The translations under genes and the position numbers were made by a program. Shown here piece after piece: positions 45,667 to 64,000 of a DNA stretch of 64,000 nucleotides. Each line of letters starts with the position of its first letter. Within the stretch, counting starts at the first letter, position 1. The notes beneath the pieces are model-generated. The model was given only the letters and a program-made list of their open reading frames with translations. It made no database searches and had not been told where the DNA came from. This DNA is from an uncultured Collinsella sp. (lineage in GTDB: Bacteria; Actinomycetota; Coriobacteriia; Coriobacteriales; Coriobacteriaceae): assembly GCA_900546115.1 (NCBI GenBank), contig URBQ01000003.1:22415-86414 (forward strand), read 5' to 3'.

Positions 45667-45668
45667 CC

Positions 45669-46523: not shown

Positions 46524-46525
46524 AT

Positions 46526-47653: not shown

Positions 47654-47654
47654 C

Positions 47655-48791
47655 GTGAAATACGTTCAGATTAACGCGTATTCGGGCGGTTGGGCTGATT
47701 CAATCATATTCAAGAAACACCGCGAGCTCATCGCCAGGGGCGAAGAGTCATGGGTTTTTTGGGCTCGCGGCAACCACGAGCAAGATGAGCATATGCAGTG
47801 CATCGCCTCATACCCCGAGGTATGCGTCGACGTGCTGCAAACGCGCTTGGACGGAAAACCTGGCTTCCATTCAAAGGGCATCACGCGCAGGCTGCTGGCG
47901 AAACTCGACGAGATAGACCCTGATGTGGTGCACCTACATCTGCTGCTCGGTTACTACATCAACATTGAAATGCTCTTTAATTGGCTTGCGAGCCACCGCT
48001 GCAAGGTAGTTTGGACTCTGCACGACTGCTGGGCGTTTACGGGGCATTGCATCTACTTTACATATGTGAAGTGCATGCAGTGGAAGACTAGGTGCGCCGC
48101 GTGCACTTCATGTCCGCAAAAACGGACGTACCCCGAAACGCTTGCGAGCGACGGCGCGGTGCGTTGGTCGTTCGATCAAAAGAAACGCTTGTTCACCATG
48201 CTATCGCCTGAGCGCGTGCAACTTGTAACGCCCTCGCAATGGCTTGCCGATCTGGTAAGGCAGAGTTTCTTGGCCAAATACGACGTAAAAGTCGTAAACA
48301 ACACCATCAATTCCGATGTTTTCAAGCCTACGCAGAGCGACTTTCGTGAGCGCTATAACATAGGCGAGCGTTTTATGGTTTTGGGCGTTGCATCGAAGTG
48401 GAGCAAGCGCAAAGGCTTGCCTGACTTCGTGCGACTGGCTAAGGAACTCGACAGTGAGGGTTTCGCCCTGGTGCTTGTGGGTCTGAACGATAAGCAGATA
48501 GAGCAAGTGCAAAGTGAGGTTTCAACTGTCGTGGCCTTGGGCAAGACTAGTACCGTCCAAGAGCTCGCCGAGGTCTACACTGCAGTCGACGTGTTCTTCA
48601 ACCCAACCAACGAGGACAACTATCCTACGGTCAATTTGGAAGCCGAGGCCTGCGGCACACGCGTGGTGTCCTACGATACTGGCGGTTGCCGGGAAACATT
48701 GCGCCGCGCGGATTCTCATGTTGTTGACAACGTGTTCGAGGCCCTAGAGACCATTCTTTCTTTGCATGAAAGAACCGACGCGGCAAGCTGA
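47655..48791 (+). CDS. Glycosyltransferase (GT4-like)
   Basis: GTG start after GGAGGAAG. Motif TLHDCWAFTGHC...C..CP is typical of a GT4 subgroup; C-terminal motif NLEAEACGTRVVSYDTGG. Confidence 0.7.
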   Translation: MKYVQINAYSGGWADSIIFKKHRELIARGEESWVFWARGNHEQDEHMQCIASYPEVCVDVLQTRLDGKPGFHSKGITRRLLAKLDEIDPDVVHLHLLLGYYINIEMLFNWLASHRCKVVWTLHDCWAFTGHCIYFTYVKCMQWKTRCAACTSCPQKRTYPETLASDGAVRWSFDQKKRLFTMLSPERVQLVTPSQWLADLVRQSFLAKYDVKVVNNTINSDVFKPTQSDFRERYNIGERFMVLGVASKWSKRKGLPDFVRLAKELDSEGFALVLVGLNDKQIEQVQSEVSTVVALGKTSTVQELAEVYTAVDVFFNPTNEDNYPTVNLEAEACGTRVVSYDTGGCRETLRRADSHVVDNVFEALETILSLHERTDAAS

Positions 48792-48830
48792 CAATAGCTA
48801 TTAGGCGGGGATGTTCCGAATGGGAACGGA

Positions 48831-50297
48831 ATGATAGAGGTGAATACACTGAATGCCATAACCGTGTCTAAAAAGGCTGGAGTTATTAACGATCGCACTT
48901 ATATAAAGGATGCTAAATCGTTTCTTACGGTTTTTCTGCTTTCTTTACTATTGATCGGCGGGGCCATTTGGACATTCTTTGAGGCAATTGGCACGACGAC
49001 TCCCGTAGAGTCAGAGTATTTCATTGCGCTCACGTTCGAAGGCTTCTATTTTGCTGCTGCAATTTTAGTGAGGCACTTCAGACGCCCCGTTTATATGTTC
49101 GAACCTTACGTAATTATTACAGTTGTTTATATTCTTGTGTATCACGTTGCTGCGGTGTTTCAGCTCTCTGCGGGAGAAACTGTTCGTTACGGTGTGGATT
49201 CCACCAAATATGCGTTAATCGGCTGTATTTTTGTAGTGCTTGGTCATATTGCTTTTACAGTTGCGTATGGACTTGAGTCAAATAGCTGCTCGAATAAGAG
49301 GTTAAAAGCTTTCTATAAAGATGTAGCAAATGAACATACAATAGTAAGAACGGCATACATTATCTATGCTTTTTCGCTTGCATTGTATCTGGCGTATCAA
49401 CTGAGTAGGGGATTCAGCCTGTCATATGTTTTATCGGGAGGTCTCGCTTCACAGGGTGACCTTACGGTTAACGACAGCCCACTCAGTTTTCTCTCATATT
49501 GCAGTTACTCGCTAATTAGCGCCTGGCTTCTCATTTATATGTTCGGGCGAAACCGAATTATTAAACTTGCTGCTGGTTTCATTATGCTTGGCGTGATTTT
49601 CTTCGGAGGAAGTCGCGCTCCTTTGCTCATTCCTTTATTGGCGTGCGCTGCGCTGCACTATATCCGCAAGAATTCGTCTCCCGCACTTACAAATGTACTT
49701 GTCCTTGTCGGCGCACTCGTACTGATATTCGCCGTTATGCAGGTTGCTCGCGTTGGCATTCGAGCGGGAGCGGGTCTTGATATGCATGGCGTCGATATGG
49801 CCGGTCTCTTTGAACCTTTCTATGCGGAAATCGATGACTTTAAGGTCTATTACGGAATTTTTGGCGTTGTCCCTGGTCTCCATTCTTTCCTATATGGAAA
49901 GCAAATGATTATCGGATCGCTAACGCTGTTTATTCCTCGTGCGATTTGGCCTGGAAAGCCTCAGCCAATTATTTATGAAATCATCAATCATCTCTACGGT
50001 CAAAGAGCTGTTCTTGACGGTGTTGCATACCCGAATTTGAGCGAGTATTACGTCGAATTTGGATTTGTTGGCATCATCGTTTGCATGTTCATTCTTGGGT
50101 TGCTGTGCCGTTATTGCCGAAGTCTATTTACTGAAGGAGGTAAAAACTCACTCGCGCTTGCGATGTACTGTGTTATTTTTCCCGCGCTATTCCAGGTCAT
50201 TATTCGTGGATATATGCCGCAAAATTTCTCAATGCTCGTTTTCCTTCTTGCTCCAATCGCAATAGCTGAGCTTCTAAACAAATGTAATTGTGAATAA
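48831..50297 (+). CDS. wzy: Polysaccharide repeat-unit polymerase (Wzy-like polytopic membrane protein)
   Basis: 488 aa with about 10-12 predicted TM helices and a large loop. Low GC, position next to wzx, no other recognisable motif. Confidence 0.55.
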   Translation: MIEVNTLNAITVSKKAGVINDRTYIKDAKSFLTVFLLSLLLIGGAIWTFFEAIGTTTPVESEYFIALTFEGFYFAAAILVRHFRRPVYMFEPYVIITVVYILVYHVAAVFQLSAGETVRYGVDSTKYALIGCIFVVLGHIAFTVAYGLESNSCSNKRLKAFYKDVANEHTIVRTAYIIYAFSLALYLAYQLSRGFSLSYVLSGGLASQGDLTVNDSPLSFLSYCSYSLISAWLLIYMFGRNRIIKLAAGFIMLGVIFFGGSRAPLLIPLLACAALHYIRKNSSPALTNVLVLVGALVLIFAVMQVARVGIRAGAGLDMHGVDMAGLFEPFYAEIDDFKVYYGIFGVVPGLHSFLYGKQMIIGSLTLFIPRAIWPGKPQPIIYEIINHLYGQRAVLDGVAYPNLSEYYVEFGFVGIIVCMFILGLLCRYCRSLFTEGGKNSLALAMYCVIFPALFQVIIRGYMPQNFSMLVFLLAPIAIAELLNKCNCE

Positions 50298-50338
50298 CCG
50301 AACGGTTTTTTGAGAATTAATCGCAGGCAACGTGCCGG

Positions 50339-51826
50339 ATGAGCGCGAATGCCGACCCATACGATTGGAGTGTTGTGCTAGGTAAGGTAGTTTCCAAATA
50401 CCGCACGATGTCTTTGCCCGTGAAAGCGGGTTTGTGGTTTACGTTATGCGAGATAATTCAGCGAGGGCTATCTGTCATATCGATGCCCATATTTACACGG
50501 TTGTTCTCGATCGATGAGTATGGATCTTACAGCCTTTATGTAACTTGGGTTATGTTGTTTGGCCTTGTGATTACCCTTAATATACAACAAGAGGTATTCA
50601 ACAAGGGCATGTCTGATCATGAATACGAGCGTCCTGATTATTCAACGTCCCAGGCAGTTCTCATTACGACTTTAATCGTAATGTTTTACCTGTTGTACCT
50701 CCTGCTCCAGTTTCCTATTAACGCATTCACAGGCATGGGGACTCTTCTGACCTCCCTTATGTTTATTGACATTTGGACTTCTGCAATTGTCACGCTTTGG
50801 CTTACCCGTCGTCGCTTTGAATATGCGTACAAACCTCTCTTGACCGTAACACTCGGTATATCCATCGTTAGCATTGGCATCGGAATAGTTGCTGTGCAAC
50901 TGGCACCCAGCGGTTATAAGGTACTTGCGCGAGTAGTGAGCAATCTCGCTCCTTATTTAGCAGCCACGGTAGTTGTGATGATTGACTTTCTTAAGCACTC
51001 GCGGCACTGCTTTGACCGTGACTGGTGGAGTGCTTCGGTCAAGATGGGCGTGCCCCTCACGCCGCATTACGCATCGCAGGTATTGCTCAATCAAGCCGAC
51101 AAAGTCCTGATCAGCTGGTTTCTCGACAACGCCAAAGTTGCAATCTACGGGGTGGCACACTCCGCTGGTCTTTTGCTTGTTATGGTCAGCAACGGTATCA
51201 ACTCATCGCTTGTACCATGGCTCTATAGTAAGCTGAAATCGGGCGATTGTCGCTCTATTGCGGGTGTGTCTAACGCTGCGGCTCTGCTTGTCGCCGTGCT
51301 GGTGTTTATCCTTATGCTTCTGGCGCCGGAGTGCGTTGCTGTGCTTGCAACGGGAGATTATGCGGAAGCAATATGGTGTATTCCGCCCATAGCTACTGGT
51401 GTTGTGTTTACTTTTCTCTACACCTTGTTTGTGAACGTCGAAATTTACTACGGCAAAGCAGGCTATGTGGCAACCGCATCGGTACTGTCGGCTGTTTTGA
51501 ATATCGTCCTAAACGTTATCGCTATCCCGCTGTTCGGATATATCGCCTCCGCATACGTTACGGCTGTCTGCTATATGGGTACCGCTATGCTTCATTACTT
51601 GTTTATGAAGAAGACGCTCAAGAGCAAGGGAGTGGGCCTTCGTATCTATGATGCCAGGTTCCTGTGCTTTATTGGCGCTTTGACATGCCTTTTTGCGGCG
51701 ATATCGCTTGTTCTTTACACGCTCGGGCCCGTACGCTACGCATTCGTTGTGGCACTTTTATTTTGCATATTCGCATGTCGCAATCGTTTACGCTCTCAAT
51801 TCAAATCGATTCGTAGCAAAGGATAG
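50339..51826 (+). CDS. wzx: Polysaccharide flippase (Wzx, MOP superfamily)
   Basis: 495 aa with about 12-14 TM helices. N-terminal pattern (LW FTLCEIIQRGLSVISMPIFTRLFSIDEYG) is typical of the polysaccharide biosynthesis protein family. Confidence 0.7.
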   Translation: MSANADPYDWSVVLGKVVSKYRTMSLPVKAGLWFTLCEIIQRGLSVISMPIFTRLFSIDEYGSYSLYVTWVMLFGLVITLNIQQEVFNKGMSDHEYERPDYSTSQAVLITTLIVMFYLLYLLLQFPINAFTGMGTLLTSLMFIDIWTSAIVTLWLTRRRFEYAYKPLLTVTLGISIVSIGIGIVAVQLAPSGYKVLARVVSNLAPYLAATVVVMIDFLKHSRHCFDRDWWSASVKMGVPLTPHYASQVLLNQADKVLISWFLDNAKVAIYGVAHSAGLLLVMVSNGINSSLVPWLYSKLKSGDCRSIAGVSNAAALLVAVLVFILMLLAPECVAVLATGDYAEAIWCIPPIATGVVFTFLYTLFVNVEIYYGKAGYVATASVLSAVLNIVLNVIAIPLFGYIASAYVTAVCYMGTAMLHYLFMKKTLKSKGVGLRIYDARFLCFIGALTCLFAAISLVLYTLGPVRYAFVVALLFCIFACRNRLRSQFKSIRSKG

Positions 51827-51836
51827 GGTTCATTCC

Positions 51837-53099
51837 ATGAAAATAATCGTCGCGCACCCACAGCGCCAACATTCATATCGACTGGCCGAAGCACTCAATC
51901 GTTCTCATATGCTTGAGGCATATTGCACAACGGTTTACTATCGTCCCCATACCTTAACGGCAATGGCGGCAAGATTATTGCCACCATTTTGGAGAAAGAA
52001 AGCAACTGCCAGGCATAGCAATGGTCTGCCGAACGAATTGGTGATTCAATACTCGGAGTTCGGTGGACTTGCATTTTTGTTCACGCATAATCTGTCGTTT
52101 GCGAAGCGCTGGTGCTCACAAGTTGAGCGTATTGTCGACGACCGTTTCGCTCGAAAAGTCGCTAAACTTGTTGCAAAGACCAGAGCCGACGCCATTGTTG
52201 GATACGACGGCCATTCTGCCGTTCTATTTGAAGATGTGAAGCGCCTGTCGCCCTCTACGATCTGCATAGCCGATATGTCGGCCGGTAATGCCCTCTATTT
52301 ACGCTCAGTGTACGAAAAGGACGTTAAACTCAATCCCGACTTCTCGGATAGCCTTCACGGCTGGAAGAGGATCTGGAATCCGGTTGACGTTGATAGGACA
52401 AAGCGCGAACTTGCGGCTACCGATGCTTTTTTGTGTGGCTCGACATTTGTTGAGCGCACCCTTGGCTATTCGGGAATCCCTCAGGACAAATGCAGGGTGT
52501 GCCACTATGGCGTTGATGTCTCCTCTTTTTTATATGCCCCGCGCCAGGCGAAAGCGGATGATGAGCCGTTGACCTTTGTGTATCTTGGGCAAGTTGCTGA
52601 GCACAAGGGGATTTCCTACCTTCTGGAGGCGTTCAGAGATATTGAAGCATCGCGTGCGCGACTTGTTTGCGTGGGCGCTATCTGCATCCCGGATTCGATT
52701 ATTGCCTCACTCCCCTCAAACATTGAGTTTAAAGGAATGGTTCAGCATGATGAAGTGTCTGAACTGCTGCTTTCTGCCGATGTGATGCTCTTCCCATCGC
52801 TTGGAGATGGGTTTTCCCTCTCAATCATGGAGGGCTTTGCCTCGGGGTTGCCTGTGGTTTGCTCAGATAACACGGGTGCGGCCGATTGTGTGGTTGAAGG
52901 AGAGAACGGGTTTGTAGTGCCTACGCAGGACGCAGCAGCGCTTCGCGACAAAATCAACTGGTTCCTCGACAATCGAAGTAAGATTCCGGGCATGGCGGAG
53001 GCAGCACGAAAGTGCGCTCTGAATACGACTTGGGATGACTATTACACGAATGCGGCTATTGCAATTACGGAATTGGTAGAGAAGGCGCGCTGTGAGTGA
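51837..53099 (+). CDS. Glycosyltransferase family 4 (GT-B, EX7E motif)
   Basis: MKIIVAHPQRQHSY start at ATG 51837 (the track ORF starts upstream inside wzx). C-terminal motif PSLGDGFSLSIMEGFASGLPVVCSDNTGAADCVVEGENG. Confidence 0.78.
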   Translation: MKIIVAHPQRQHSYRLAEALNRSHMLEAYCTTVYYRPHTLTAMAARLLPPFWRKKATARHSNGLPNELVIQYSEFGGLAFLFTHNLSFAKRWCSQVERIVDDRFARKVAKLVAKTRADAIVGYDGHSAVLFEDVKRLSPSTICIADMSAGNALYLRSVYEKDVKLNPDFSDSLHGWKRIWNPVDVDRTKRELAATDAFLCGSTFVERTLGYSGIPQDKCRVCHYGVDVSSFLYAPRQAKADDEPLTFVYLGQVAEHKGISYLLEAFRDIEASRARLVCVGAICIPDSIIASLPSNIEFKGMVQHDEVSELLLSADVMLFPSLGDGFSLSIMEGFASGLPVVCSDNTGAADCVVEGENGFVVPTQDAAALRDKINWFLDNRSKIPGMAEAARKCALNTTWDDYYTNAAIAITELVEKARCE

Positions 53100-53853
53100 T
53101 GGCAAAAACAAGGTATACCTGCTTGGCGACAGTATTACACAGGGGCTCGGCAGCAAGAAAGTCAACTTTTCTGGCGAACTCTCGCAACTACTGGGAGAAT
53201 CTTACGATGTTGTAAACCTTGCCTATACTGGCACGATGGTCGATTACGCCTTGAAGCTGCTGGATGAGAATAAAGTACGCTTTACAAGGGATGGCGATGT
53301 GTGCGTCGTGTTGTACGGCAATGTTGATGCGCAAGTTCGACCCAGCCGTACAGGTCACGTTTTCCCGCACATTCCCAATAGATTCCAGGGTGGAGGCATG
53401 CTCATGCCGCGCCCTTTCTATTCATGCACGCTCGCGAAGCGTATGGGACAGCATGCTGATAACCTTTGCAGAAAAGTGCTGTCGGGGGTGATCAAGCTTG
53501 TTGACGGTACGGAGCAATGGATGCCCCTGGATTCGTTTTCGCCCCAGTATGCAAAGCTGCTTGACCGCCTGCTGGACTTGGGCTTCAAAGTTGTTCCCTG
53601 CTCATGCGTTTACATCAGCGAGAAGTTATTCCCGGGTACGCCCGAGCAGTACGAACTGTATAACCAAAGGATTTGCTCCCTGGCTTTGGAGCGCTCCCTA
53701 GGTTTCATCGATTTCTATTGCCTGTTCAAGTCTCAGGTCGATGTTTCAGGCTGGGATTCCTGCTACAACAAAGATCGTTTTCATCCCAATGGCGAGGGGT
53801 ATCGCCTGATGGCGGAGCGTATTGCAACCCAGATCGAAAAGATAAATCGCTAA
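53092..53853 (+). CDS. SGNH/GDSL-family hydrolase (possible glycan O-acyl esterase/transferase)
   Basis: Block I YLLGDSITQG and block V DRFHPNGEGY. GTG start overlaps the upstream stop. Confidence 0.7.
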   Translation: MSDGKNKVYLLGDSITQGLGSKKVNFSGELSQLLGESYDVVNLAYTGTMVDYALKLLDENKVRFTRDGDVCVVLYGNVDAQVRPSRTGHVFPHIPNRFQGGGMLMPRPFYSCTLAKRMGQHADNLCRKVLSGVIKLVDGTEQWMPLDSFSPQYAKLLDRLLDLGFKVVPCSCVYISEKLFPGTPEQYELYNQRICSLALERSLGFIDFYCLFKSQVDVSGWDSCYNKDRFHPNGEGYRLMAERIATQIEKINR

Positions 53854-54089
53854 AAATTTTTATGAGTGCATTTTAACCCACAAACGCTATTTCCCCTGTG
53901 ACTAAACCCCTCAAACCCTGAGTCTCGGTATCTCGATTTCTTCAAGCGAAATGAGAGCAACAGCAGCGTGAACCTGATCGTAGGCGGTTTGCAGATTGAG
54001 GCTGATCGTGATGCTCGAGTACTGCTGGACGGCGGATGCCTTCGCGGAGATGTCCGATGCGGAACCCGTCATGCCTATCGTCTCATCAG

Positions 54090-54527
54090 CATCGCACGGT
54101 GCTCTTTCAGCGATTTAAAAAGGGAGTTCTGCCGAGCGAATTGGCGTTACTTTCTAAGGAAAATTTGAATGTTTATGGTATAAGTTCTACTTCTACCAAT
54201 GAGCAATACCGTGAGTTAATGGAGCCTGGGGCAGTTAATTATCCACAACGTCTAACCGCGCTCAAATATTTTCATGACAAGGGGACGAAAACCTGGGTTA
54301 CTATGGAGCCATATCCCACTCCGAACGTTTTCGATCAGGATTTAAGCCAAGTACTCGAAAAGATAACCTTTGTCGATCGTATTGTGTTCGGTAACACACA
54401 TTGCGACAAGAGAACTACCGCGTTTGTCGAACATGAAGGCACTTACCGAACTTCTGCAGAGAAGGTCAAGGCTTTTTGTGTTAAGCATAAGATTGAATGT
54501 CATATAAAAAAGGGAATGGTGAGGTGA
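54090..54527 (+). pseudogene. Probable C-terminal remnant of a radical-SAM (SplB/DNA-photolyase-like) protein
   Basis: The segment ...NVYGISSTSTNEQYRELMEPGAVNYPQRLTALKYFHDKGTKTWVTMEPYP... resembles the distal TIM-barrel strands of that family. No CxxxCxxC cluster motif lies upstream in any frame. Confidence 0.35.
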
Positions 54528-54537
54528 GGTGATTGGA

Positions 54538-54879
54538 ATGAAGATCGGTCGTCAGGACCGTCCTGCAGAAGCCTTGGTTGTCGAAGCCTGGCCAATTATC
54601 TGCATTGGTGTCGGTGAAGGCATCGAGTCATTTTCGGGACGTGAATTCGAAGGATTCACAAGGTTCCTTAATCACGATAACGCCATCACACCCGAACGCT
54701 TCCCTGGACTCTGTACGTCCAAGAGCGACTGCTGCGGCTGTACTGCTTGCGCTTTTTCGTGCCCCAAGGACGCAGTCTTGTTGTTTCCCGTTGATGAGGG
54801 CTTCCTATATCTCGCTATCGATGCATCCGCCTGTATCGGCTGTAGGGCCTGCCTTAAAGCATGTCCGCTAAAGGGTTAG
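54538..54879 (+). pseudogene. Truncated 2x[4Fe-4S] ferredoxin module (N-terminal part of FrhB-like proteins that accompany polysaccharide pyruvyl transferases)
   Basis: CCGCTACAFSCPKDAV...EGFLY...ACIGCRACLKACP is followed directly by a stop. The catalytic body normally following this module is absent. Confidence 0.4.
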
Positions 54880-55805
54880 TAATGGGATTTGCGCTCAGGT
54901 ATAAGCTAGAGAACCTCGCTCGCTACGGAAAGCAGGGCACCGGGCGGCTATCTGAATATCGAGGGTATAGCCATGGGCTCAAAAGCGGCATTCCTGTTTA
55001 TTTGACCTCCTACGGGTCTCTTTCTGCGGTTTGCGTAGGCGTCTCTTGGCTACTCAAGCTTTGCGCGGAATCGCTGATCACCGAGAATAGATTGCCCGCA
55101 TTCCTTGTCACCGCATGTGGCATGCTTTCTATGCTGCCTTTCTCGACGCTTTTCTTCGGATTTTTTCTGGCGCTCCTCATTTGCTGCTTTCGTCTGATCA
55201 TTTCCATTTCAAAACACAGCCACCTTCTGAGCGCCGTGGAAGGGCTGAACTACAGCTGGAGCAAGAAGACGCATTCCGAAGAGATGCGCATATCAGAGTT
55301 AGCCAGCCACTGCTGTAGTGATATCTGCAAGTGTTTCTCTATCATGCACCCTCATTCGGGAATTGGTTGCGCTGTCAGGCTTTACGATGCCAATACTAAG
55401 AGCTATGTAACGAGGGCGCGCAGTGGGAATCTCGATGACGGGCGCGAGCGTTCTACCGAGTCGCTCTCCTCCAGCAGTTGTCTTCTCGAAGCCCTCGAAA
55501 GTGACCAGCTGCACAATTACACCGTTATTCTCTGCTCCAACACGATGAAAGCGAGAGAGTTAGGGCAGCTCGACAGCGATACTAATTCTATGTCACTCGG
55601 TGATGAGGACAGAAGCCTTTTGATTTCACGACTTATCATGAATGATGGTAATGGCAGTTCGCTCGTCGGCATTCTATACGTAAGCTCGAAAAGGAAGAAT
55701 GCGTTCGGGATTGAGGACATCACCCTCTATCTGCTTCTGCACGACCTATTCAACCACGCTCTCATCACATGCACCGGGCGCGGAGTGACTTCGAATGGGA
55801 GGTAG
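54861..55805 (+). CDS. Hypothetical membrane protein with GAF-like C-terminal domain
   Basis: About 2-3 TM helices (residues ~50-115), then a soluble domain whose pattern (IGCAVRLYD..., ...SSLVGILYVSSKRKNAFGIEDITLYLLLHDLFNHAL) resembles GAF by eye. Alternative start ATG 54882. Confidence 0.4.
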   Translation: MSAKGLVMGFALRYKLENLARYGKQGTGRLSEYRGYSHGLKSGIPVYLTSYGSLSAVCVGVSWLLKLCAESLITENRLPAFLVTACGMLSMLPFSTLFFGFFLALLICCFRLIISISKHSHLLSAVEGLNYSWSKKTHSEEMRISELASHCCSDICKCFSIMHPHSGIGCAVRLYDANTKSYVTRARSGNLDDGRERSTESLSSSSCLLEALESDQLHNYTVILCSNTMKARELGQLDSDTNSMSLGDEDRSLLISRLIMNDGNGSSLVGILYVSSKRKNAFGIEDITLYLLLHDLFNHALITCTGRGVTSNGR

Positions 55806-55808
55806 AAA

Positions 55809-56036
55809 ATGGCTAAGACTAGGGCCAAGACTAGGAAGGTTGGAAAGCGAACCAATATCGAAAAAATCCTTAGGGCGAAGGTTTCCGAGATCGATTCAAG
55901 GACAATTGCAGCGGGCGACGCAGCGACCACTGTACTTTTGAAGAAAATTGCCTCCACCGATGTGCGAGATTACACGAAGCTGAGGAAACAGGGTCCTTCA
56001 GACGAGATAGCCAAGTTGATCTCTTCCCGCATGTAG
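55809..56036 (+). CDS. Small hypothetical protein (75 aa, basic N-terminus)
   Basis: ATG lies 6 nt after GGGAGG and 3 nt after the upstream stop, suggesting translational coupling. No recognisable motif. Confidence 0.4.
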   Translation: MAKTRAKTRKVGKRTNIEKILRAKVSEIDSRTIAAGDAATTVLLKKIASTDVRDYTKLRKQGPSDEIAKLISSRM

Positions 56037-56348
56037 GAGCCTAGCCGCTAGTCGCTTGGGTCGATCTTTGTGCATCCTCTGTTCTTATATCAACGGAAAC
56101 CGTGTGGAACCTTCTAAGGTCTTCATTCGTCGGATTCATTTTCATCAAATTATCTGGTGAGATTAAAGATATTGCAGCTGTGAATAACCTATTTACAGCT
56201 CTCTAGCTCTATGCTGCAATTTTATTGTCGTTACTCTTATGTGTCTCAAGCGATTTGACATGTGTTATCAAGTCATTTCTCGTTTTGGGGACGGAAGAAG
56301 TAGGGGGCATTTAGTCAACTTCGACTACGTTGGCAGTCGTCTACTGTG

Positions 56349-56774
56349 GACACTCAGCAGCTGCTGGCCAACTACAAGGACGTGCCCCATAACCTGATCT
56401 TGGCCATCGCGGAGGCCAACCGCACCCGCACGGACTTCGTGGCCGACGAGGTACTGCAGATGGTGTGGGACCGCGTGTACGGGGGCAAGCCGAAGCCGGT
56501 CGTGGGCGTCTACCGCCTGACGATGAAGTCCAACTCCGACAACTTCCGCGCGAGCTCCATCCAGGGCGTCATGAAGCGCGTGAAGGCCAAGGGCGTGCCC
56601 GTGGTGGTCTACGAGCCCACGCTGGACGACCCGGAGTTCTTCGGGTCCGAGGTGACCCACGACCTGGAGGCCTTCAAGGCCGGCTGCGACGTGATCGTGG
56701 CCAACCGCTGGAGCGACGAGCTCGCGGACGTGGCGGACAAGGTCTACACGAGGGACCTGTTTAAGAGGGACTAG
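56349..56774 (+). pseudogene. ugd: UDP-glucose 6-dehydrogenase, 3' fragment 1 (about the last 140 codons)
   Basis: [33 protein letters not shown]...[28 protein letters not shown]...[11 protein letters not shown] is colinear with the C-terminal third of Ugd as I recall it. There is no N-terminal or catalytic part upstream, and GC jumps at the left junction (~56346). Confidence 0.85.
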
Positions 56775-56828
56775 GGGAGAGTATTCCCAACTGCGATTTT
56801 AGCTTTATCTACAAGTCGCATTGTCAAG

Positions 56829-56867
56829 AAAGAGGTCATATCGGCTAACGCCGATATGACCTCTTTT
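56829..56867 (+). terminator. Strong intrinsic terminator after ugd fragment 1
   Basis: 15-17-bp stem agaggtcatatcggc / gccgatatgacctct with loop taac, followed by tttt. Confidence 0.75.
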
Positions 56868-57308
56868 GGTATAAGTCTGATTCCTTTTGCAGCTGGTGAG
56901 CGATGCGATGTATATAGCACGTTAAGCAATGAACACCATTTTCCCTGCTTTTAGCCTTGAACACCAAGAACGGGACATCGCCCGTGCTGCAATCGACTGC
57001 GTCGGGCTTCTTGATCCAGCCCGTCAGGCTTCCGACTTCGTGGCTCAGCCAATGCGTCAACTCCACGTGGGTCATCCCGGACATTTTGCAAGGCTCCATG
57101 CTTGCATTGGTGACGACGAGGTTTAAGTACATGGCGGAGCACGAGTGTGAAAGGAGGGGATATCCGGATATGTCGGAGCTGGAAGAGACTGATGAGCTGA
57201 ACAAGAATACGGAGCGTTAGATTGGTCCGCACGGATTGTTAGGCTAAGCTCGGATGTTGCCTTTGTTTATATTTGACGTCTTAACCTTCGATGTGAAAGA
57301 AGAGGTCT

Positions 57309-58175
57309 ATGCATCGTTTATCCTGCCGGTCTGTTCTCCCTATGATTCGCCTTGTCCGTGGTTTTAAAGAACAAAAATGGGCTAAGCAGTTTTTGCGTGG
57401 CGATATATACATGAATACCCTAGGGTATTTTTGGAATGAGGGAAACGTGGAGCAGCAGGACTTTCTTGAGGGGGCCTGCGCATCTTTTGACCCCCATATC
57501 ATGCGGGGCTTTCCTATAGATTTACTCGGTGTCCTTGCAAAAGAATCGTATCCAATACCGAGAGGCGCAGGCTACTGTAATGTGTGCTGCTTTTCGTGTG
57601 TCCTCATTAAGCAAGTAGATACGAGAATCGACTTAATTGAATTGCCCGATCCGGGCCTTGATCTTGGTTCATGGATTGTTGTTATTGACAATCCATGCGA
57701 ACTTATATCTAGGCTTAGGACAGCCGTTCTACAATTGGGTTATGACTTTGTAGCTGCTCCGGTTGAATATAGAGATAGCGTTCAGTTGAATCCCTCTAAA
57801 GTTGTTAAATCAACAATGGATTTAAAATCTCATGCTCCATTACCTGCTTATATGGTTTTTCCAAATGGGATTCCACATTTTAATGCAGGAGTGTTTGTAA
57901 AGAATGTTCGTTATGCAAACCAAGCTGAATGGCGTATCGCCGTTTATAGGAATGAACGGTCATATGAGCCTCTAATTCTTAAGCTTGGCGATTTGACTGA
58001 TATCGCTCATTTGGCTAGGAGAACGGAGCTTACTGATGATCTGCAACGGGTGCACGGTTGTTCAGTCCCCTATTTGACTAGAGGGTGCTTTGGAACGAAG
58101 ACTTCTCAAGAACTATCTCAGGATCTCTTTAAGTTAGGTAATGAGGAGCTTTTCATTACGCTGACGATTGGTTAG
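57309..58175 (+). CDS. Hypothetical protein, 288 aa (possibly DUF2971-like)
   Basis: Low-GC ORF with AGAGG before the ATG. The N-terminal pattern FLRGDIYMNTLGYFWNEG...DFLEG and the C-terminal FVKNVRYANQAEWRIAV recall DUF2971-type proteins, from memory only. Confidence 0.55.
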   Translation: MHRLSCRSVLPMIRLVRGFKEQKWAKQFLRGDIYMNTLGYFWNEGNVEQQDFLEGACASFDPHIMRGFPIDLLGVLAKESYPIPRGAGYCNVCCFSCVLIKQVDTRIDLIELPDPGLDLGSWIVVIDNPCELISRLRTAVLQLGYDFVAAPVEYRDSVQLNPSKVVKSTMDLKSHAPLPAYMVFPNGIPHFNAGVFVKNVRYANQAEWRIAVYRNERSYEPLILKLGDLTDIAHLARRTELTDDLQRVHGCSVPYLTRGCFGTKTSQELSQDLFKLGNEELFITLTIG

Positions 58176-58345
58176 CACTCAATTGACCAGGATAAAAAGA
58201 GATACTACTGCTGGCCGATCTTGGTGTTTGCATTCTATGCAATAGGTTTTTCGATTCCGGCAGAAGTGCTCCTTATGTTGTCACTCGAGAAAAGTCCAGG
58301 CAGATGGCTCTTAATCAACCCGGTTCGGATTTGTCGTAATTGGAG

Positions 58346-60391
58346 CTATTCAGACTCAGCATCACAGCCTGTATCACGCCTCTTTTCGATCAGCTTTTTA
58401 GCGAGCTCGAGGACGCTCTCGTCGTAATATGGCCAGTCTACGAAGTTTTCGAGGTACCCGCGCCCCGTTGCGGCCGACAACTCATCGTTTATCTTGAGTG
58501 TAATCGCGACGAGCAAGGTTAGCATGCGATAGTAATCGGATCGAATGTTCATCGCATCAGGGTCGGTGATCGGTGAATGCGCATGGTCGTATCTGTTCCT
58601 GAGACCCTGTGAGTTGGGGAAAGAGGCGTCGTTGAACATGTAATCGAGATATGCTGCCTCGTCGGGCGCGAACAGCTTGCCGCAGTACGACAGCATTTCG
58701 TCTGAGACAAGCCCATCGATGAGCGCTAAATCACCGTCTCCGCATCCCCCAAGCGCAATCGCGCCATTATCCCAAACGGCCTTCAGGCAAATTGATCGAG
58801 GGGTTGGGGAGAGAGCGCCTGTCTTTTCGCACACACTTACCAGTTGTCGGTCGACTAATTGTTGGAGTACCTCGGCGTATACATCATCATAATCGTCGAA
58901 GGTGACCATAGCATTCGAAATTAAATCGAAGAAGCAGCGAGCACGGTCGTTATGAACTCTTCTGAATGTCAGCATGCACTGGTCGGAGAACAGATAGAAT
59001 CCCCATCTGTTAAAGCAGGCTCCGTCGATTGCGTACTTTTTCTCAGAGAGCGCGTTGAGGGTTCCAAAAGATTTAAAGTTATCATAGGGGAAATAGTCTC
59101 CGTCGATTTTTCCAATCCTCGAATATATTGAATAGGACTTAACGGCGCGCTCAATCTCTGGCCCTATCGACTTGCATTTGTCGAGCCACGAAGCTCCGCT
59201 TGACGGCAGCGCCAAGCTGAAACCATTGATTGAGTACTCCTCTGCAAAATAAACGTTGTACGTCCATTCGAGTGCATCTTCGAGCCTTGTACCGCGGCTT
59301 TCGAGGAAATTCGCGTATGCGATAACTTCGACATTGGCGAGAGATTCCCAGGTGTTGGAGATCGTATTCATTCGGTATTCCCCCAGCACGTGGGGCCCCA
59401 GCGTCGCAAGCAGGCCGCTCTCCTCGTGGGGGTGAGCAGGCGAGGCCATGAGACCGCTTCGGTCTACTACGTCCAGTAGGTATCTGCAATTGTTCATGAT
59501 GCTTGCGTGATCGGTGTATTTACCGAGCCACGTTTCGCCAAAGCTATAGGTCAAAGTTAGGCCGTTGACCTTTATTCCTTTGCAAGCAATCTGTTCAGGG
59601 TCGATTTGTACACCGGCTCCGTACTCAAGTCCAGCGCCTTGTCGGAATAGCTCATCCATGGCCTTATCGTGGGCCTGCTTTGCGCGCACTTTGACGTCCG
59701 GCGACGGAGAGAATTTGCATTTTGTTGCGCCGGAAGGCCAATTGAAAAGGGCCTCCATATAATTCGGGTTAGCGCGCTGGTCGTCAAGGTAGCCTGCCAT
59801 TATCGAATCGAAGTCGCCCTGGGAAAAGCATTTGGGGAGGTAGATTGCGTTCTGGCTCCTTGATTCCGTCGCGTACTCGCGAATGAGCAGCTCAGCGGAA
59901 TAATAAGGGTTGTCAACTAGTGATTTTCTTATCTCTGCATCGAATAATTTGACGAGCTTGTCGTTCTCCAAGATAGGAGCTAGGCATTCGATTTGCCGCG
60001 AGAGAAGTTCGTCAATTTCCTCGCCGGAGATCATTTTCTCTGCGCCGCAGGCGTGCACCAGGCCCCAGAACTGAGTGGCGTACTGCATCTCGAGTTCCTC
60101 GTAAATACCAAGGATTCCCGAAGACGCGAGCGTCTCCCTCGTATACTTGCAAGCATTCGTGAAGAGCGCGGAAACAACGCTTGCAACATCGATGTCTTCT
60201 GCTTTCTCGAACAATTCAGGGACCGTTTCGAATGTGAGCTTGAGTTGATGTGCCTCTATTGCGTCGTTAATCGTTGCGATTTGATTGTGAGGCCCCTCCT
60301 TCAGGATATAAAGACAACGGTCTATGAAAAGTCCTACGGCCCAGTCACTGCGGTCATAGGAAACGATCCTAGTGTGGTTGAATTCTCGCAA
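58346..60391 (-). CDS. Hypothetical protein, 681 aa, with C-terminal RNxxxH (HEPN-like) motif
   Basis: Long uninterrupted low-GC ORF. TTG start lies 6 nt after GAAAGG; the first internal Met is near residue 100. RNRYDH is encoded at 58583-58600. No P-loop or other familiar motif. Confidence 0.6.
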   Translation of the reverse strand: MREFNHTRIVSYDRSDWAVGLFIDRCLYILKEGPHNQIATINDAIEAHQLKLTFETVPELFEKAEDIDVASVVSALFTNACKYTRETLASSGILGIYEELEMQYATQFWGLVHACGAEKMISGEEIDELLSRQIECLAPILENDKLVKLFDAEIRKSLVDNPYYSAELLIREYATESRSQNAIYLPKCFSQGDFDSIMAGYLDDQRANPNYMEALFNWPSGATKCKFSPSPDVKVRAKQAHDKAMDELFRQGAGLEYGAGVQIDPEQIACKGIKVNGLTLTYSFGETWLGKYTDHASIMNNCRYLLDVVDRSGLMASPAHPHEESGLLATLGPHVLGEYRMNTISNTWESLANVEVIAYANFLESRGTRLEDALEWTYNVYFAEEYSINGFSLALPSSGASWLDKCKSIGPEIERAVKSYSIYSRIGKIDGDYFPYDNFKSFGTLNALSEKKYAIDGACFNRWGFYLFSDQCMLTFRRVHNDRARCFFDLISNAMVTFDDYDDVYAEVLQQLVDRQLVSVCEKTGALSPTPRSICLKAVWDNGAIALGGCGDGDLALIDGLVSDEMLSYCGKLFAPDEAAYLDYMFNDASFPNSQGLRNRYDHAHSPITDPDAMNIRSDYYRMLTLLVAITLKINDELSAATGRGYLENFVDWPYYDESVLELAKKLIEKRRDTGCDAESE

Positions 60392-60635
60392 CGCTAACCT
60401 TTCTCGCGTAATGTCGACTGCACAAGAATAACGCGTGTTCGACCTCGTCGGTGGTCAACGAAGGCGCCTAACGGGGTTCCGATGTAAAGCGGGTGGACCT
60501 TGAGGCCTCTGCGGTACCCCGCTTCTTCCCTTATGATGCCAGATTCGGTGAGTACGCGTTGTTGGCCAAAGCGAGCCCTGTCGATAAGGTTGCTGCAATC
60601 AAAGGCCCCGAGGTGCACGTCAGCGTACACCACTA

Positions 60636-60885
60636 GAAGTCCAACTCCGACAACTTCCGCGCGAGCTCCATCCAGGGCGTCATGAAGCGCGTGAAGGCCA
60701 AGGGCGTGCCCGTGGTAGTCTACGAGCCCACGCTGGACGCGCCGGAGTTCTTCGGCTCCGAGGTCACGCACGACCTGGAGGCCTTCAAGTCCGGCTGCGA
60801 CGTTATCGTAGCCAACCGCTGGAGCGACGAGCTCGCGGACGTTGCGGACAAGGTGTACACGAGGGATCTGTTTAAGCGGGACTAG
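60636..60885 (+). pseudogene. ugd: UDP-glucose 6-dehydrogenase, 3' fragment 2 (about the last 83 codons)
   Basis: ...[82 protein letters not shown] is colinear with 56525-56774. Homology starts abruptly at 60636. Confidence 0.85.
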
Positions 60886-60940
60886 GGGAGCGGAACGGCC
60901 TGCGCTGGGCGGCCGCAGTCTAAATAAGAAACTTAGTTGA

Positions 60941-60984
60941 GTACGGGGTGTATCGACGCCAGTCGATACACCCCGTACTTTGTT
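60941..60984 (+). terminator. Strong intrinsic terminator after ugd fragment 2
   Basis: 17-bp stem gtacggggtgtatcgac / gtcgatacaccccgtac with loop gcca, followed by tttgtt. Confidence 0.7.
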
Positions 60985-61218: not shown

Positions 61219-64000
61219 ATGAGCAGAGAAATCGAAATCAGGGACAAAATCACCAGACTCGATCCTGCTGGCTTTCAGAACCTTGCCCAGGAATTGCTTA
61301 CGCAATATTTTAAGTATGATAAGCCCGTGCACAGGGGGTCTGCCGCCCATTCGGCGGCAACCGCCCCTGGAACGCCGGACACAATCTGGCTTTTGCCCCA
61401 CAACAAATTCGCCTATCTCGAATGCGGCCATTATCTAGATAGAGCTGATGCGAAGAATAAAATCGAATTGGATATCGAGAAGTGCCTGGAGGCCGAAAGA
61501 GAAGAGCTCAATTCTGGGCAGCTTGTTAAGATAGTCATTGCGTATTCTTGCCGGAGGCTAGACAGTTCTGATCTCAACTATCTAAGAGGCATTGACGATC
61601 GCATTGATCTTGTGGGCACGGACGAGATGGCGTGCATGTTGGCCCGGCGGTACCCAAATCTTGCGAAAGAGCATCTGGGCATCGAGGCAGGTACTGGGCA
61701 AATTATGTCCCCGGATGAATTCGAATCCGCAGTTGAAAAGAATAGCTTCGCATCAACCCTGAAAGTCGATTTGCTTGGCAGGGATAAAGAGATCAACGAA
61801 CTTCTCGCCGCGCTCGATGAGAATCAGTTCGTCTTGGTGTATGGGCGTCCTGGATGCGGGAAGACCAAGCTTTGCGTAGAGGCTCTGCGCCAATTTTCGA
61901 ATGGCAGCGGCGCTTATCCTCTTGTCATTAAATCGAACAGGTTGCCAATCTGGAACGATTTGGCTAACGATGTACCCAAAGATGACCCTTCGTTAATTCT
62001 GCTCGACGACGCCAACGAGCTTTCAGACCTCGAAGGGTTTGCGGACTTCGTGTCTAACAGGGGTAATATCAAGGTTCTTATGACGGCAAGAAATTACGCG
62101 ATCGGGTTCGTTAAGAGCTCCGTTTCACAGTACTGCAAGCCTTACCTCTATGCAGTCAACCCGCTTGACGAGGAGACGGCCTTACATGTGGTCGAGAACG
62201 GATTTGGTATCGCGAAAGGGACAGCCTCTGCGGATATAATTCGCTTATCGAGGGGCAACATGCGCTTGGCCTTCGCGGCGGCCGAGGTTGCTAAGGAACG
62301 CGGGGACGAAGTATTCTCCACGATGCCAAGTCTTATAGAAGCTTGCTACGGAGATAAGGCTTCTCGTCTGGGCAGCGACTTCAAAAAAGCGGCGACGATC
62401 GTCTCGGTTTTGGATGCTCACAGGATAGAGGAGAATAAAGACCTGGATAACCTGCTTTCCAAGGTAGGGATTTCTCATGACAGATATGTCGATGCTTGCG
62501 CCGCCCTGTGCCACGACGAACTGGTGGATGCATGTCAGGATATGATGGCGGTAGCGCCGGGCGAACAGGTTTTGAGGGATTATTTGCTCTACCAGGCCTT
62601 CATCGCCGAGAAAAGTTTGTCTCTTTCCGACGTGGATGAGCTGGAGTGCGGCAATGCTCGATGCCCCGGTATTGTCGCCATCCTTGTAAACAATTTCTAC
62701 AGCGAAGAGCTTATTTCCTCCTTGAAATCGCAGCTGAACGACATTTGGGCGTTGGCGAACGGTAGGAAACGATGGAAAATGGTAAGCGATTACAATTTCC
62801 TCCTCGGTGAGAAGGGCCTTGAACATATTCTCGGGGCAATCGAAGACACCGAACCCGGAAACTACGATTACCTTGCCTGTAAATTCGACAAGGCTTCCGG
62901 ATTCTATTCGCAGAAATCTCGTATCCTCACATCGCTCGCGTTTTTTCTGCATGCCCCTCAATTCAGCGAGCCGGAAGAGCTGTTCTTTATGGCATTGGAG
63001 AAGAACATTTTGCCTCCACGGGAGGCGAAGGAGACACTCACAACGAGCATGTCCTTCAACGAGAACTCGTATTCGGACGGGTTTCGATACGAGAACGAGG
63101 TCCTTGAACGCCTTTCGTGCGAGTTTCGCAAAACAAAGGAGGATAGGTACGGGGTTTTGCTTGCCTATTATGTCGAGGCTTTACTGGCGGCAGTGTACGA
63201 GGGCCGGACGAGGATGGAGGGAAACAAAGTCACGTTCATCCATGGCAACCACCTCTACACCCAGGCGATGATCGAGTTGCGGAAGCGAGCGATCGCCTGC
63301 CTCAAAGAGCTCAGAGATTGTCATGAGCTGATCCGTCTCTGCGATTCGGTTATTACCGGGCTTCGGGGTATCGGCGGCGAGGACGGTGCCGGTCGGTTGT
63401 GGAAGGAGACCTTGGAGGAGGCGTATAAAGGATATATTTCCCGAATCGAGTCGATTGAGATTTGCAGCTTGCCTGGGTTTGTTCAACTGGAGAAAGAGCT
63501 CATTTCCCAAGGTATCATCGCCGAAGAGGGACTCCCGTTCCTCAATGTGTCGCCCAAGATGCGGATTGCAGCCCAAATCTTCTTAGACGACTCCCGCGGA
63601 CACGATGTCTCGGAGGAATTGATCGAGCTTATTCAAACGGCTGGCTCGTCAGAGCTATTGAAGGCGATCTCGATTGTGTGTTCTGCCGGCCGGCAAAGCT
63701 CAACTGGGATTCCATTCCCAATCCTGAGTGACGTCATGATTCTTGGTGCGGAGACTTTGACCGAATGCGCAGAGCCGATCATCCTCTCTGATGTTCCCTT
63801 GTATACAGTCCCGGACGATTTGCTCATTCGCTGGATTGACTTGCTCGGCATCGATCGGGTTCGCGGTCTTGCCTTGAAGCGACAGGAGAATGAGATTCCC
63901 GAATGGCTTAGTCGAATTGACGAAGCGCGGTTAAAGGAGTTCGGTGTCTGTCCAGAGCTGGCAAGGGATATCGAGGAAGGAGCCGACAAATACGGCGAAA
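61219..64000 (+). CDS. Large P-loop NTPase (STAND/AAA-like) with restriction-endonuclease-like N-terminal domain and long helical C-terminus; 3' end beyond window
   Basis: Hand translation shows + frame 1 open from the TAA at 61114-61116 to nt 64000. ATG 61219 follows GGAGGAG. Walker A YGRPGCGKTK (61843-61866), Walker B LILLDDANE, VLMTARN. N-terminus has LDPAGFQNLAQELL...GTPDTIWLL...AYLECGHY. It is not in the supplied track, which has no in-window stop for it. Confidence 0.75.
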   Translation, partial: MSREIEIRDKITRLDPAGFQNLAQELLTQYFKYDKPVHRGSAAHSAATAPGTPDTIWLLPHNKFAYLECGHYLDRADAKNKIELDIEKCLEAEREELNSGQLVKIVIAYSCRRLDSSDLNYLRGIDDRIDLVGTDEMACMLARRYPNLAKEHLGIEAGTGQIMSPDEFESAVEKNSFASTLKVDLLGRDKEINELLAALDENQFVLVYGRPGCGKTKLCVEALRQFSNGSGAYPLVIKSNRLPIWNDLANDVPKDDPSLILLDDANELSDLEGFADFVSNRGNIKVLMTARNYAIGFVKSSVSQYCKPYLYAVNPLDEETALHVVENGFGIAKGTASADIIRLSRGNMRLAFAAAEVAKERGDEVFSTMPSLIEACYGDKASRLGSDFKKAATIVSVLDAHRIEENKDLDNLLSKVGISHDRYVDACAALCHDELVDACQDMMAVAPGEQVLRDYLLYQAFIAEKSLSLSDVDELECGNARCPGIVAILVNNFYSEELISSLKSQLNDIWALANGRKRWKMVSDYNFLLGEKGLEHILGAIEDTEPGNYDYLACKFDKASGFYSQKSRILTSLAFFLHAPQFSEPEELFFMALEKNILPPREAKETLTTSMSFNENSYSDGFRYENEVLERLSCEFRKTKEDRYGVLLAYYVEALLAAVYEGRTRMEGNKVTFIHGNHLYTQAMIELRKRAIACLKELRDCHELIRLCDSVITGLRGIGGEDGAGRLWKETLEEAYKGYISRIESIEICSLPGFVQLEKELISQGIIAEEGLPFLNVSPKMRIAAQIFLDDSRGHDVSEELIELIQTAGSSELLKAISIVCSAGRQSSTGIPFPILSDVMILGAETLTECAEPIILSDVPLYTVPDDLLIRWIDLLGIDRVRGLALKRQENEIPEWLSRIDEARLKEFGVCPELARDIEEGADKYGE

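Follow-up and report, generated by a model that had tools for sequence, protein, structure and literature searches.

Truncated 3' ends of ugd as probable scars of sequential displacement between a capsule locus and a phage-defence island in Collinsella

How does the 3' end of a sugar-nucleotide gene come to stand twice in the same chromosomal region, in two diverged forms that bracket foreign-looking DNA, with the remainder of the gene absent from both? This question is raised by a stretch of 64,000 nucleotides (nt) from an uncultured Collinsella sp. (GenBank assembly GCA_900546115.1, contig URBQ01000003.1, positions 22,415 to 86,414), hereafter the window, which belongs to a gut Collinsella of the aerofaciens group. 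The gene is ugd, which encodes UDP-glucose 6-dehydrogenase (Ugd) and which in Collinsella is a conserved gene of native composition within highly variable, foreign-looking DNA. We compared the locus with a set of about 40 loci (designated here by numbers with the prefix L) that comprises 17 species-level Collinsella genomes, at least 11 Collinsella-type metagenome loci and about a dozen contigs retrieved by exact-protein look-up. The comparison makes it probable that the ugd 3' ends are scars of sequential displacement at the boundary between the capsular polysaccharide (CPS) locus and a phage-defence island, which were created by illegitimate joins and later reshuffled by homologous recombination.

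The two ugd remnants and their terminators

A repeat finder run over 54-64 kb of the window returned a single outstanding direct repeat, formed by 56525-56779 and 60636-60890, which is 255 nt long and 95% identical, with a start-to-start spacing of 4111 nt. The original prediction, read by eye from the sequence, was a colinear repeat of 255 bp with about 13 mismatches, mostly in third codon positions and causing two amino-acid changes. Exact alignment found the repeat to be as long and as strong as it had been read, with exactly 13 mismatches: 9 affect the third codon position only, 1 is a synonymous first-position change (AGG to CGG), and the remaining 3 account for the two amino-acid replacements, D to A (two bases in one codon) and A to S. 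The edges of the repeat are sharp in the pairwise alignment (AAGTCC on the left, 5 nt past the stop codon on the right), and both copies terminate in ...GACTAGGGGAG, the shared terminal sequence that had been noticed at the outset.

Both copies encode Ugd C-termini, as had been proposed. The UDP-binding C-terminal domain (PF03720) is matched by both (E=1.5e-10 and 5.2e-8), and remnant 1 covers positions 257-388 of the 388 positions of the Ugd equivalog NF011631. In comparison with a full-length Collinsella Ugd of 419 amino acids (aa), remnant 1 (56348..56774, plus strand) corresponds to residues 279-419 with the stop codon, starting at DTQQLL and overlapping the first repeat copy, whereas remnant 2 (60636..60885, plus strand) corresponds to residues 338-419 with the stop codon, starting at KSNSDNF and overlapping the second. 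The 5' two-thirds of the gene are indeed absent from both fragments. The N-terminal NAD-binding domain (PF03721) and the central dimerisation/catalytic domain (PF00984) are missing from each, so that neither can be counted as a functional Ugd, whereas the intact homologues in L176 and L182 contain all three domains. No ugd sequence beyond the two remnants was detected in the 64-kb window at permissive thresholds, including E<=50 upstream. The 5' breakpoints of the remnants are clean, without decayed ugd sequence upstream, and by inspection the junctions show about 1 nt of microhomology. A weak upstream peptide resembling SFGYGGYCLPK was considered as a decayed 5' continuation of remnant 1 and dismissed after a sensitive tblastn search yielded nothing significant upstream of either remnant.

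The remnants are islands of native composition, with a GC content of 0.65 (remnant 1) and 0.63 (remnant 2) and a GC content at third codon positions (GC3) of 0.97 and 0.93, respectively. The DNA between them has a GC content of 0.49 and that downstream of the second 0.52, in agreement with the initial reading of both as low-GC, and the surrounding DNA lies at 0.48-0.52. The two open reading frames (ORFs) that run antisense over the remnants (60394-61431, minus strand, 345 aa, and 56325-56660, minus strand, 111 aa) are not genes but artefacts that arise because GC3 is very high in ugd. The interval between the remnants holds a gene for a 288-aa protein (57309..58175, plus strand) and, on the opposite strand, a gene for a 681-aa protein of the PADLOC candidate single-gene defence family PDC-S56 (58346..60391, minus strand, PDLC05039).

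Each remnant is followed by a strong hairpin. Hairpin 1 (56829..56866, plus strand) consists of a 17-bp stem and a 4-nt loop followed by a T-run (z-score -7.7), and hairpin 2 (60940..60979, plus strand) of an 18-bp stem and a 4-nt loop (z-score -6.1); a simple terminator scanner listed neither of them despite the very strong folding. The original prediction described them as strong and mutually unrelated terminators. The strength is evident, but the two are positional homologues: both stems are perfect, both hairpins begin exactly 54 nt past the stop codon, and a TATCGnC/GnCGATA core is common to both. Equivalent hairpins are located 47-69 nt past the ugd stop codon in L007, L008, L010, L013, L014a and L086a, and the outer stems vary by compensatory changes across Collinsella lineages. 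The counterpart of hairpin 1 lies 3' of ugd in L086a, and this region is also common to L008. The spacers between stop codon and hairpin are not alignable between the two copies, but in the lineage of the remnant 2 type (window, L086 and L013) patchy homology extends through the hairpin and about 60 nt further, to ~61045. This extended homology, together with the shared hairpin, identifies the repeated unit as the whole native 3' module of ugd, which consists of the coding end, a fast-evolving spacer and the terminator.

The core motif has 4 matches in the 64 kb, two of which are the ugd hairpins; a genome-wide element akin to repetitive extragenic palindromes was rejected on this count, and the core looks specific to the ugd 3' module. 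Across Collinsella lineages, the ugd terminator is conserved as a perfect and very long palindrome (38-42 nt). In L086, the 5' arm of the hairpin is deleted exactly where the homology with the window turns patchy. Long palindromes are known to be fragile, and the ugd palindrome could contribute to breakage at the locus.

The divergence between the two remnants (dN, nonsynonymous, 0.013; dS, synonymous, 0.217; dN/dS ~0.06) is on the level of that between the ugd genes of different Collinsella species. Divergence of this magnitude, dominated by synonymous changes, must have built up under purifying selection, when each copy still belonged to a working gene in a separate lineage. Over the shared 250 nt, remnant 2 is 98.0% identical to the ugd of L008, remnant 1 is 97.2% identical to those of L007 and L034, and the identity between the remnants is only 94.8%. 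For both remnants, the ugd of another species is a closer match than the partner copy, which shows that, in line with the earlier idea of incoming ugd ends from diverged lineages, the two come from two ugd lineages and not from a local duplication. The window, L086 and L089 have the same sequence for remnant 2. No mismatch occurs in the first 81 nt of the repeat, which were examined as a possible gene-conversion or crossover tract; this was rejected because ugd nt 1011-1091 are generally more conserved throughout the genus (pairwise divergence within Collinsella of 2.0%, as against 5.5% for the rest).

The changes that occurred since are of another kind. As a class, the remnants carry 36 synonymous and 52 nonsynonymous lineage-unique changes, compared with 29 synonymous and 4 nonsynonymous ones in the same 3' region of intact genes (Fisher p=3e-6). 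Remnant 1 has 1 synonymous and 6 nonsynonymous unique changes, which points to decay, and remnant 2 has 2 synonymous and 0 nonsynonymous ones. By this pattern, the remnants are under relaxed constraint and decaying; they are scars and not functional mini-genes.

As to the intact gene, nucleotide identity of ugd between Collinsella species is 91-98% (L006-L014, L022 and L034), whereas the adjoining gene for the priming transferase (Bac_transf) is only ~85% identical (L007, L009, L011 and L025), a difference that suggests recombinational transfer of ugd alleles between species. L015-L019 have a second group of ugd alleles, which is more diverged (82-84%).

ugd and its neighbours in other Collinsella loci

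The ugd gene is intact in about half of the loci (L006-L009, L011, L012, L015-L018, L025, L096, L098, L099, L102, L176 and L182). Within the operon it has no fixed place: in L009, L011 and L098 it comes third, immediately behind Bac_transf, and in L007, L176 and L182 it is the last CPS gene. At least two ugd pieces are present in 7 of the 28 sampled loci (17 species-level and 11 metagenome). In L096, an intact ugd is followed after 1.2 kb by a remnant of nt 972-1260; L099 combines an intact ugd with a 67-nt remnant; L008 contains an intact ugd, an AbiH gene and then an internal ugd fragment; and in L010, a ugd cut by the start of the contig is accompanied by an internal fragment that adjoins an OLD-family nuclease. 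Two 3' remnants surround an OLD-family nuclease in L014, and two remnants each are found in L013 and L110, as they are in the window and in L086. The internal fragments of L008 and L010 lack the 3' end of the gene and end at nt 1076/1077. On the 5' side, remnants start at about 16 different points of the gene, between nt 739 and nt 1192.

Outside ugd, homology between the species-level genomes is almost nil and breaks off no more than a few bases from the ugd stop codon. Nearly every locus has different content next to a conserved left anchor, which is ugd or a remnant of it, so that the comparison across genomes proposed with the original prediction shows an arrangement that is far from invariant. 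Most of the cargo next to or between ugd pieces consists of defence genes, including Gabija-like ones (OLD). The window-type locus is itself enriched in defence genes, with PDC-S56, a STAND NTPase and Avs2, and the same position elsewhere is occupied by OLD/GajA-like, AbiH, SIR2 with HerA, PDC-S49-like, RloB, ThsA-Macro, AIPR and YobI/Tmn genes. A census of the region downstream of ugd, which covered 27 loci and 150 non-redundant ORFs, was dominated by defence families, namely AAA_21/AAA_15, OLD-TOPRIM, RloB, GajA (7e-116), UvrD-type helicases, AbiH, ThsA-Macro, AIPR and YobI. The region downstream of ugd had been predicted to be a hotspot for the exchange of both glycan and defence genes. The variable defence cargo agrees with this view, but the glycan part has to be moved: glycan genes are exchanged mostly upstream of ugd and defence genes downstream.

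On the right side, a tRNA-Val gene, a 385-aa gene and a tRNA-Ala gene are seen in L013, L034, L086 and L089, and together may form the conserved right flank of the hotspot. In L182, which was not scanned for tRNAs, the 385-aa gene alone of this set was found. The order is tRNA-Val(CAC), a gene of 385-454 aa without a Pfam match and tRNA-Ala(GGC), located at 17037-20166 in L013, at 18022-20143 in L086, at 10835 in L034 and at 8603 in L089; the right side of L013 contains two copies of tRNA-Ala and a tRNA-Met.

Several loci share blocks with the window in combinations with other neighbours, and the exact ORF of remnant 2 was found in several contexts. In particular, L086/L087 match window positions 56403-60929 (remnant 1, cassette and remnant 2) with 97.3% identity, but a different CPS locus (with a heparinase-like gene, Wzy_C and Wzx) lies to the left of the block and different cargo (a PDC-S49-like gene, DCD, HTH and Fic) to the right. 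The shared block is a mosaic, ~95% identical in its left half and 99-100% in its right half. The ugd gene of which remnant 1 is the end, denoted ugd-A, is cut at nt 889 in L086, a position different from the cut in the window, on the same block. The junction between the region upstream of PDC-S56 and ugd nt 1011 is common to the window, L086 and L089. Clustering of the flanks of ugd remnants recovered the same upstream flank with different downstream flanks and the reverse: a junction from an OLD gene to ugd at nt ~800 is common to L010, L014 and L091, L008 and L010 have in common a junction at which ugd nt 1077 adjoins the next gene cluster, and downstream flanks are common to L014b and L034. 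Such mixed combinations are what recombination within or at the remnants yields.

An un-stacked form of the block also exists. L176/L177 contain an intact ugd, terminator 1, the 288-aa gene and a PDC-S56 homologue, lack the second remnant, and are 81-85% identical to window positions 56348-60477. The isolate Collinsella sp. LCP21S3_A9 (L182) contains an intact ugd, terminator 1 and a shortened gene of the 288-aa family. The CPS locus of this isolate encodes two full-length proteins of the UDP-sugar dehydrogenase family (2339-3652, 437 aa, and 8480-9739, 419 aa), of which only the 419-aa one is of the ugd type discussed here.

Routes to the stacked arrangement

Three features that sequential displacement would leave behind are found in these loci. 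Orphan ugd 3' pieces lie downstream of a complete or newer copy with acquired genes between them; the junctions fall at non-fixed positions (the ~16 classes) with little or no microhomology (~1 nt in the window); and the copies are of different lineages, as judged by the dN/dS of ~0.06 and by nearest relatives that are alleles of other species. The starting point would be a block of ugd-A, terminator, 288-aa gene and PDC-S56 behind an intact ugd, as seen in other strains. In a first step, this block would have been joined to a chromosome that carried a second allele, ugd-B, with its terminator and other defence cargo: at one end, homologous pairing would have taken place in or upstream of ugd, and the other end would have been joined illegitimately at ugd-B nt 1011, either by homology-facilitated illegitimate recombination or by an equivalent non-homologous insertion, so that the last 250 nt of ugd-B were pushed downstream as an orphan. 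In a second step, a later swap of the CPS locus would have cut ugd-A at residue 279 and left a field of gene debris upstream. The different cut of ugd-A on the same block in L086 indicates that the truncation was independent of the formation of the block and followed it. Finally, the comparison across loci shows that composite blocks, after their formation, are shuffled from strain to strain through ordinary homologous recombination, which places the same remnant next to different left or right neighbours. The remnants are non-functional, each retaining its own strong terminator.

Repeated cassette replacement with a crossover point inside the conserved 3' end of ugd had been the initial interpretation. 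The recurrent stacking speaks for it, but the crossover cannot be placed at the 5' ends of the remnants. These are ~16 scattered joins of the illegitimate kind, since homologous exchange within the gene would have produced a mosaic but intact ugd. There are demonstrations of homology-facilitated illegitimate recombination in a few species (PMC3240628), and the same logic has been proposed for the effector-immunity arrays of type VI secretion systems (T6SS) and for orphan Rhs 3' regions (PMC5361080).

Several points weigh against sequential displacement as formulated here. The order of events and the exact mechanism are reconstructed from end states. Homology with the un-stacked block of L176 ends at window position 60477, 158 nt short of the junction, and for the founding junction at nt 1011 the recovered loci do not include both a donor and a recipient. 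The right flank of the hotspot was not reached in the strain of the window and is known from contigs of other strains. The frequencies given above are rough, since they come from one genome per species and at least 11 metagenome loci.

The same end states would result from plain non-homologous insertion, which is for this reason the main rival and which we nevertheless consider unlikely. Under this explanation, a foreign block was end-joined into an intact resident ugd-B at nt 1011, bringing with it the 288-aa gene, PDC-S56 and a ugd-A end that was either complete or already truncated, and the 5' 1010 nt of ugd-B were later lost together with other DNA by deletion or a CPS swap, so that the founding event had no homologous anchor. 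It fits the clean illegitimate junctions, with ~1 nt of microhomology, at the 5' ends of both remnants and the debris field of other truncated genes upstream, but requires an extra deletion that removed exactly the 5' part of ugd-B; none of the sampled loci has kept a ugd 5' part upstream of a cassette. Moreover, the repeated targeting of ugd, with ~16 breakpoints within 450 nt, is left unexplained unless homology directs the incoming DNA.

Direct repeats of a gene 3' end around foreign low-GC DNA are also the classic signature of site-specific integration, and the region is flanked by tRNA genes in related contigs. The e14 element and phage 21 at icd of Escherichia coli, as well as islands in tRNA genes, duplicate the 3' end of the target gene and thereby produce diverged direct repeats like those seen here. 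An element with an attP that mimics the ugd 3' end would have generated the two remnants as attL and attR and later lost its integrase. We regard this origin as quite improbable. Neither the cassette nor the adjacent ~10 kb encodes an integrase, resolvase or transposase in the window-type locus and the loci with full Pfam tables, where the sole related match is an IstB fragment in L181, and there is no recombinase family among the top 25 families listed for the 150-ORF census. The 5' ends of the remnants at ~16 positions define no single crossover core, the internal fragments of L008 and L010 lack the 3' end, and terminator 1 and the 288-aa gene are native neighbours of intact ugd in L176 and L182. 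In contrast to insertions of the icd type, the target gene is not reconstituted in the window, and phage or plasmid counterparts of the cassette did not come to light: none of the viral contigs searched carries a Collinsella ugd 3' end or PDC-S56, GenBank phages gave no match, and a search of plasmids for the cassette or the ugd end returned generic ugd matches only. Site-specific integration is thus largely refuted. An integron cassette array was rejected as well, given that there is no IntI integrase, that the unit is a coding-gene end with a terminator hairpin and that cassette boundaries are not consistently at the hairpin.

If the ugd 3' end had been duplicated locally in tandem in this lineage, and the copies had then diverged and received the cassette between them, this would account for their being collinear and in the same orientation, with homologous terminators at the same 54-nt offset. 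Such an origin appears highly improbable. A dN/dS of ~0.06 is unlike what two non-functional stumps diverging in place would produce, considering that the remnants show relaxed constraint, and each copy has a nearer match in the ugd of another species than in its partner; in addition, the spacers from stop codon to hairpin cannot be aligned and the un-stacked block exists elsewhere. Least probable of all is an artefact of assembly or binning that joined two strains at the shared repeat: although the source is probably metagenome-derived and a 255-nt repeat can mislead assemblers, the copies are distinguishable at 13 sites, two independently assembled human gut contigs (ERZ28597402 and ERZ27272217) differ from the window by 1-2 mismatches over 17.6 kb, which establishes that the arrangement is real, and a diverged version of it is present in ERZ27258367 and ERZ28648157.

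A bolder extension of sequential displacement, which we put forward as a possible but doubtful idea, is that the ugd 3' module, coding end plus terminator palindrome, acts as a portable recombination anchor independent of any integrase. Cassettes with ugd stumps could then be excised, captured and swapped by RecA-mediated exchange with any ugd copy, and the 38-40-bp palindrome might seed the breaks. If this is the case, the assembly and shuffling of defence-cassette arrays in Collinsella would functionally resemble attC or Rhs-core systems, and a mechanical coupling would exist between capsule switching and the turnover of phage defence.

The closest mechanistic analogue of the proposed sequential displacement at ugd is that at T6SS and Rhs loci (PMC5361080), as described for the effector-immunity arrays of Vibrio cholerae (Kirchberger et al., 2017, PMC5361080) and, as cited in the latter work, for orphan C-terminal regions of Rhs and contact-dependent inhibition (CDI) systems (Jackson et al., 2009). 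In those arrays as well, a conserved gene region anchors incoming modules whose other end is joined illegitimately, older 3' pieces of different lineages are pushed downstream as orphans, and composite arrays spread by ordinary homologous recombination without an integrase. The orphans differ in nature: at T6SS and Rhs loci they consist of a variable toxin tip with its immunity gene, whereas at ugd a housekeeping sugar-nucleotide gene has left its conserved part as the orphan, which is decaying and has no evident function. Furthermore, the cargo stacked at ugd consists of unrelated anti-phage genes, and the anchor gene belongs to a capsule locus.

In ecological terms, the closest analogues are the core-gene-flanked defence hotspots cDHS1 and cDHS2 of Pseudomonas aeruginosa (Johnson et al., 2023, PMC10250203) and the replacement and additive types of flexible genomic islands (Lopez-Perez et al., 2014, PMC4033161). 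Common to all is a fixed chromosomal position with variable, low-GC, defence-rich content and tRNA genes nearby, for which transfer by recombination in conserved flanks has been proposed; as in the flexible-island concept, an island of the replacement type, with glycan genes, adjoins one of the additive type. Unlike cDHS1 and cDHS2, the Collinsella hotspot is physically fused to the capsule locus, and its left flank, ugd, is not a stable core gene but is often truncated, duplicated as stumps and interleaved with cassettes.

There is also a resemblance at the Collinsella locus to classical capsule switching, in that ugd is conserved, borders the serotype-variable gene set and serves as a recombination substrate, and that CPS content differs between strains with the same ugd-side block. 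Capsule and O-antigen switching by recombination in conserved flanks is familiar from galF/gnd/ugd in Klebsiella and E. coli and from dexB/aliA in pneumococcus. Classical switching, however, involves two homologous crossovers and leaves the flanks intact, whereas here the joins are illegitimate, ugd is truncated and its position in the operon varies.

Collinsella is among the most prevalent actinobacterial genera of the human gut, and to our knowledge its capsule loci and defence repertoire are essentially undescribed; a literature search on the capsule and defence systems of Collinsella returned nothing relevant and no prior description of this locus. The surface polysaccharide, as receptor or shield, and intracellular defence, the two main determinants of phage susceptibility, here lie side by side and are exchanged at one hotspot, with the ugd stumps as a readable record of successive events. 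ugd and its remnants could serve as landmarks for strain typing of Collinsella and for mining defence cargo, such as the 288-aa family and PDC-S56, in gut metagenomes. If sequential displacement is the correct explanation, a case from a Gram-positive gut bacterium is added to the few loci (Rhs, CDI and T6SS arrays) for which homology-anchored illegitimate recombination has been invoked.

The capsule locus, the cassette genes and the adjacent cargo

The left edge of the low-GC locus for capsule and exopolysaccharide (EPS) synthesis is marked by a tRNA-Ala(GGC) gene (40319..40394, plus strand; Rfam and ARAGORN), exactly at which GC content falls from >0.6 to ~0.5. The order tRNA-Ala, NusG, Bac_transf is kept in L098. 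The capsule/EPS operon (41341..53853, plus strand; GC content 0.53), delineated from Pfam matches and gene tables, contains genes for a NusG-like protein, the priming Bac_transf, glycosyltransferases, FnlABC-like proteins, Wzy, Wzx, GT4 and a GDSL esterase. Its first gene, the NusG-like paralogue (41341-41895), resembles the operon-specific antiterminators of the UpxY/RfaH type found in other capsule loci.

Between the operon and remnant 1 lies the debris field of truncated genes (53854..56347, ~2.5 kb, plus strand), recognized by partial Pfam and NCBIfam matches and probably representing leftovers of earlier CPS gene sets. It includes a C-terminal piece of a radical-SAM protein (54036-54527) and an N-terminal piece of a protein with a 4Fe-4S ferredoxin domain (Fer4; 54529-54879), each with a partial Pfam/NCBIfam match, as well as a membrane-like ORF of 314 aa and an ORF of 75 aa to which no function was assigned. 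No ugd sequence is detectable within 53854-56347. About 150 nt of non-coding sequence (~56150-56300) recur in L106, where the ugd breakpoint downstream of them is a different one.

The 288-aa protein belongs to a Collinsella-restricted family with 24 homologue clusters (P0001-P0024) and has no Pfam, NCBIfam or PADLOC match. The gene is usually the first after ugd, with or without PDC-S56 behind it, and is directly 3' of the intact ugd in L176 and L182; the family may represent an uncharacterised defence or accessory gene. The PDC-S56 protein matches PDLC05039 over positions 1-640 of 649 (E=6e-123) and is thus full-length, and the homologue in L176 matches with 7e-129. A literature search on PDC-S56 returned nothing relevant, and the defence function is a prediction. 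The region upstream of this gene, which would include its promoter (60392..60635), shows no similarity to Ugd and ends at the illegitimate junction with ugd nt 1011.

Downstream of remnant 2, a gene for a STAND-type NTPase of 1209 aa (61219..64000 and past the end of the window, plus strand) was identified from weak nSTAND6/AAA_16 matches and its open frame was confirmed. Beyond the window, it is followed in convergent orientation by an Avs2-like gene (1468 aa, PADLOC 3e-61); for the pair, the corresponding coordinates are 871-5277 in L001 and 14874-18503 in L004. Both metagenome contigs stop at the same point shortly after the pair, which suggests that a repeat is present there.

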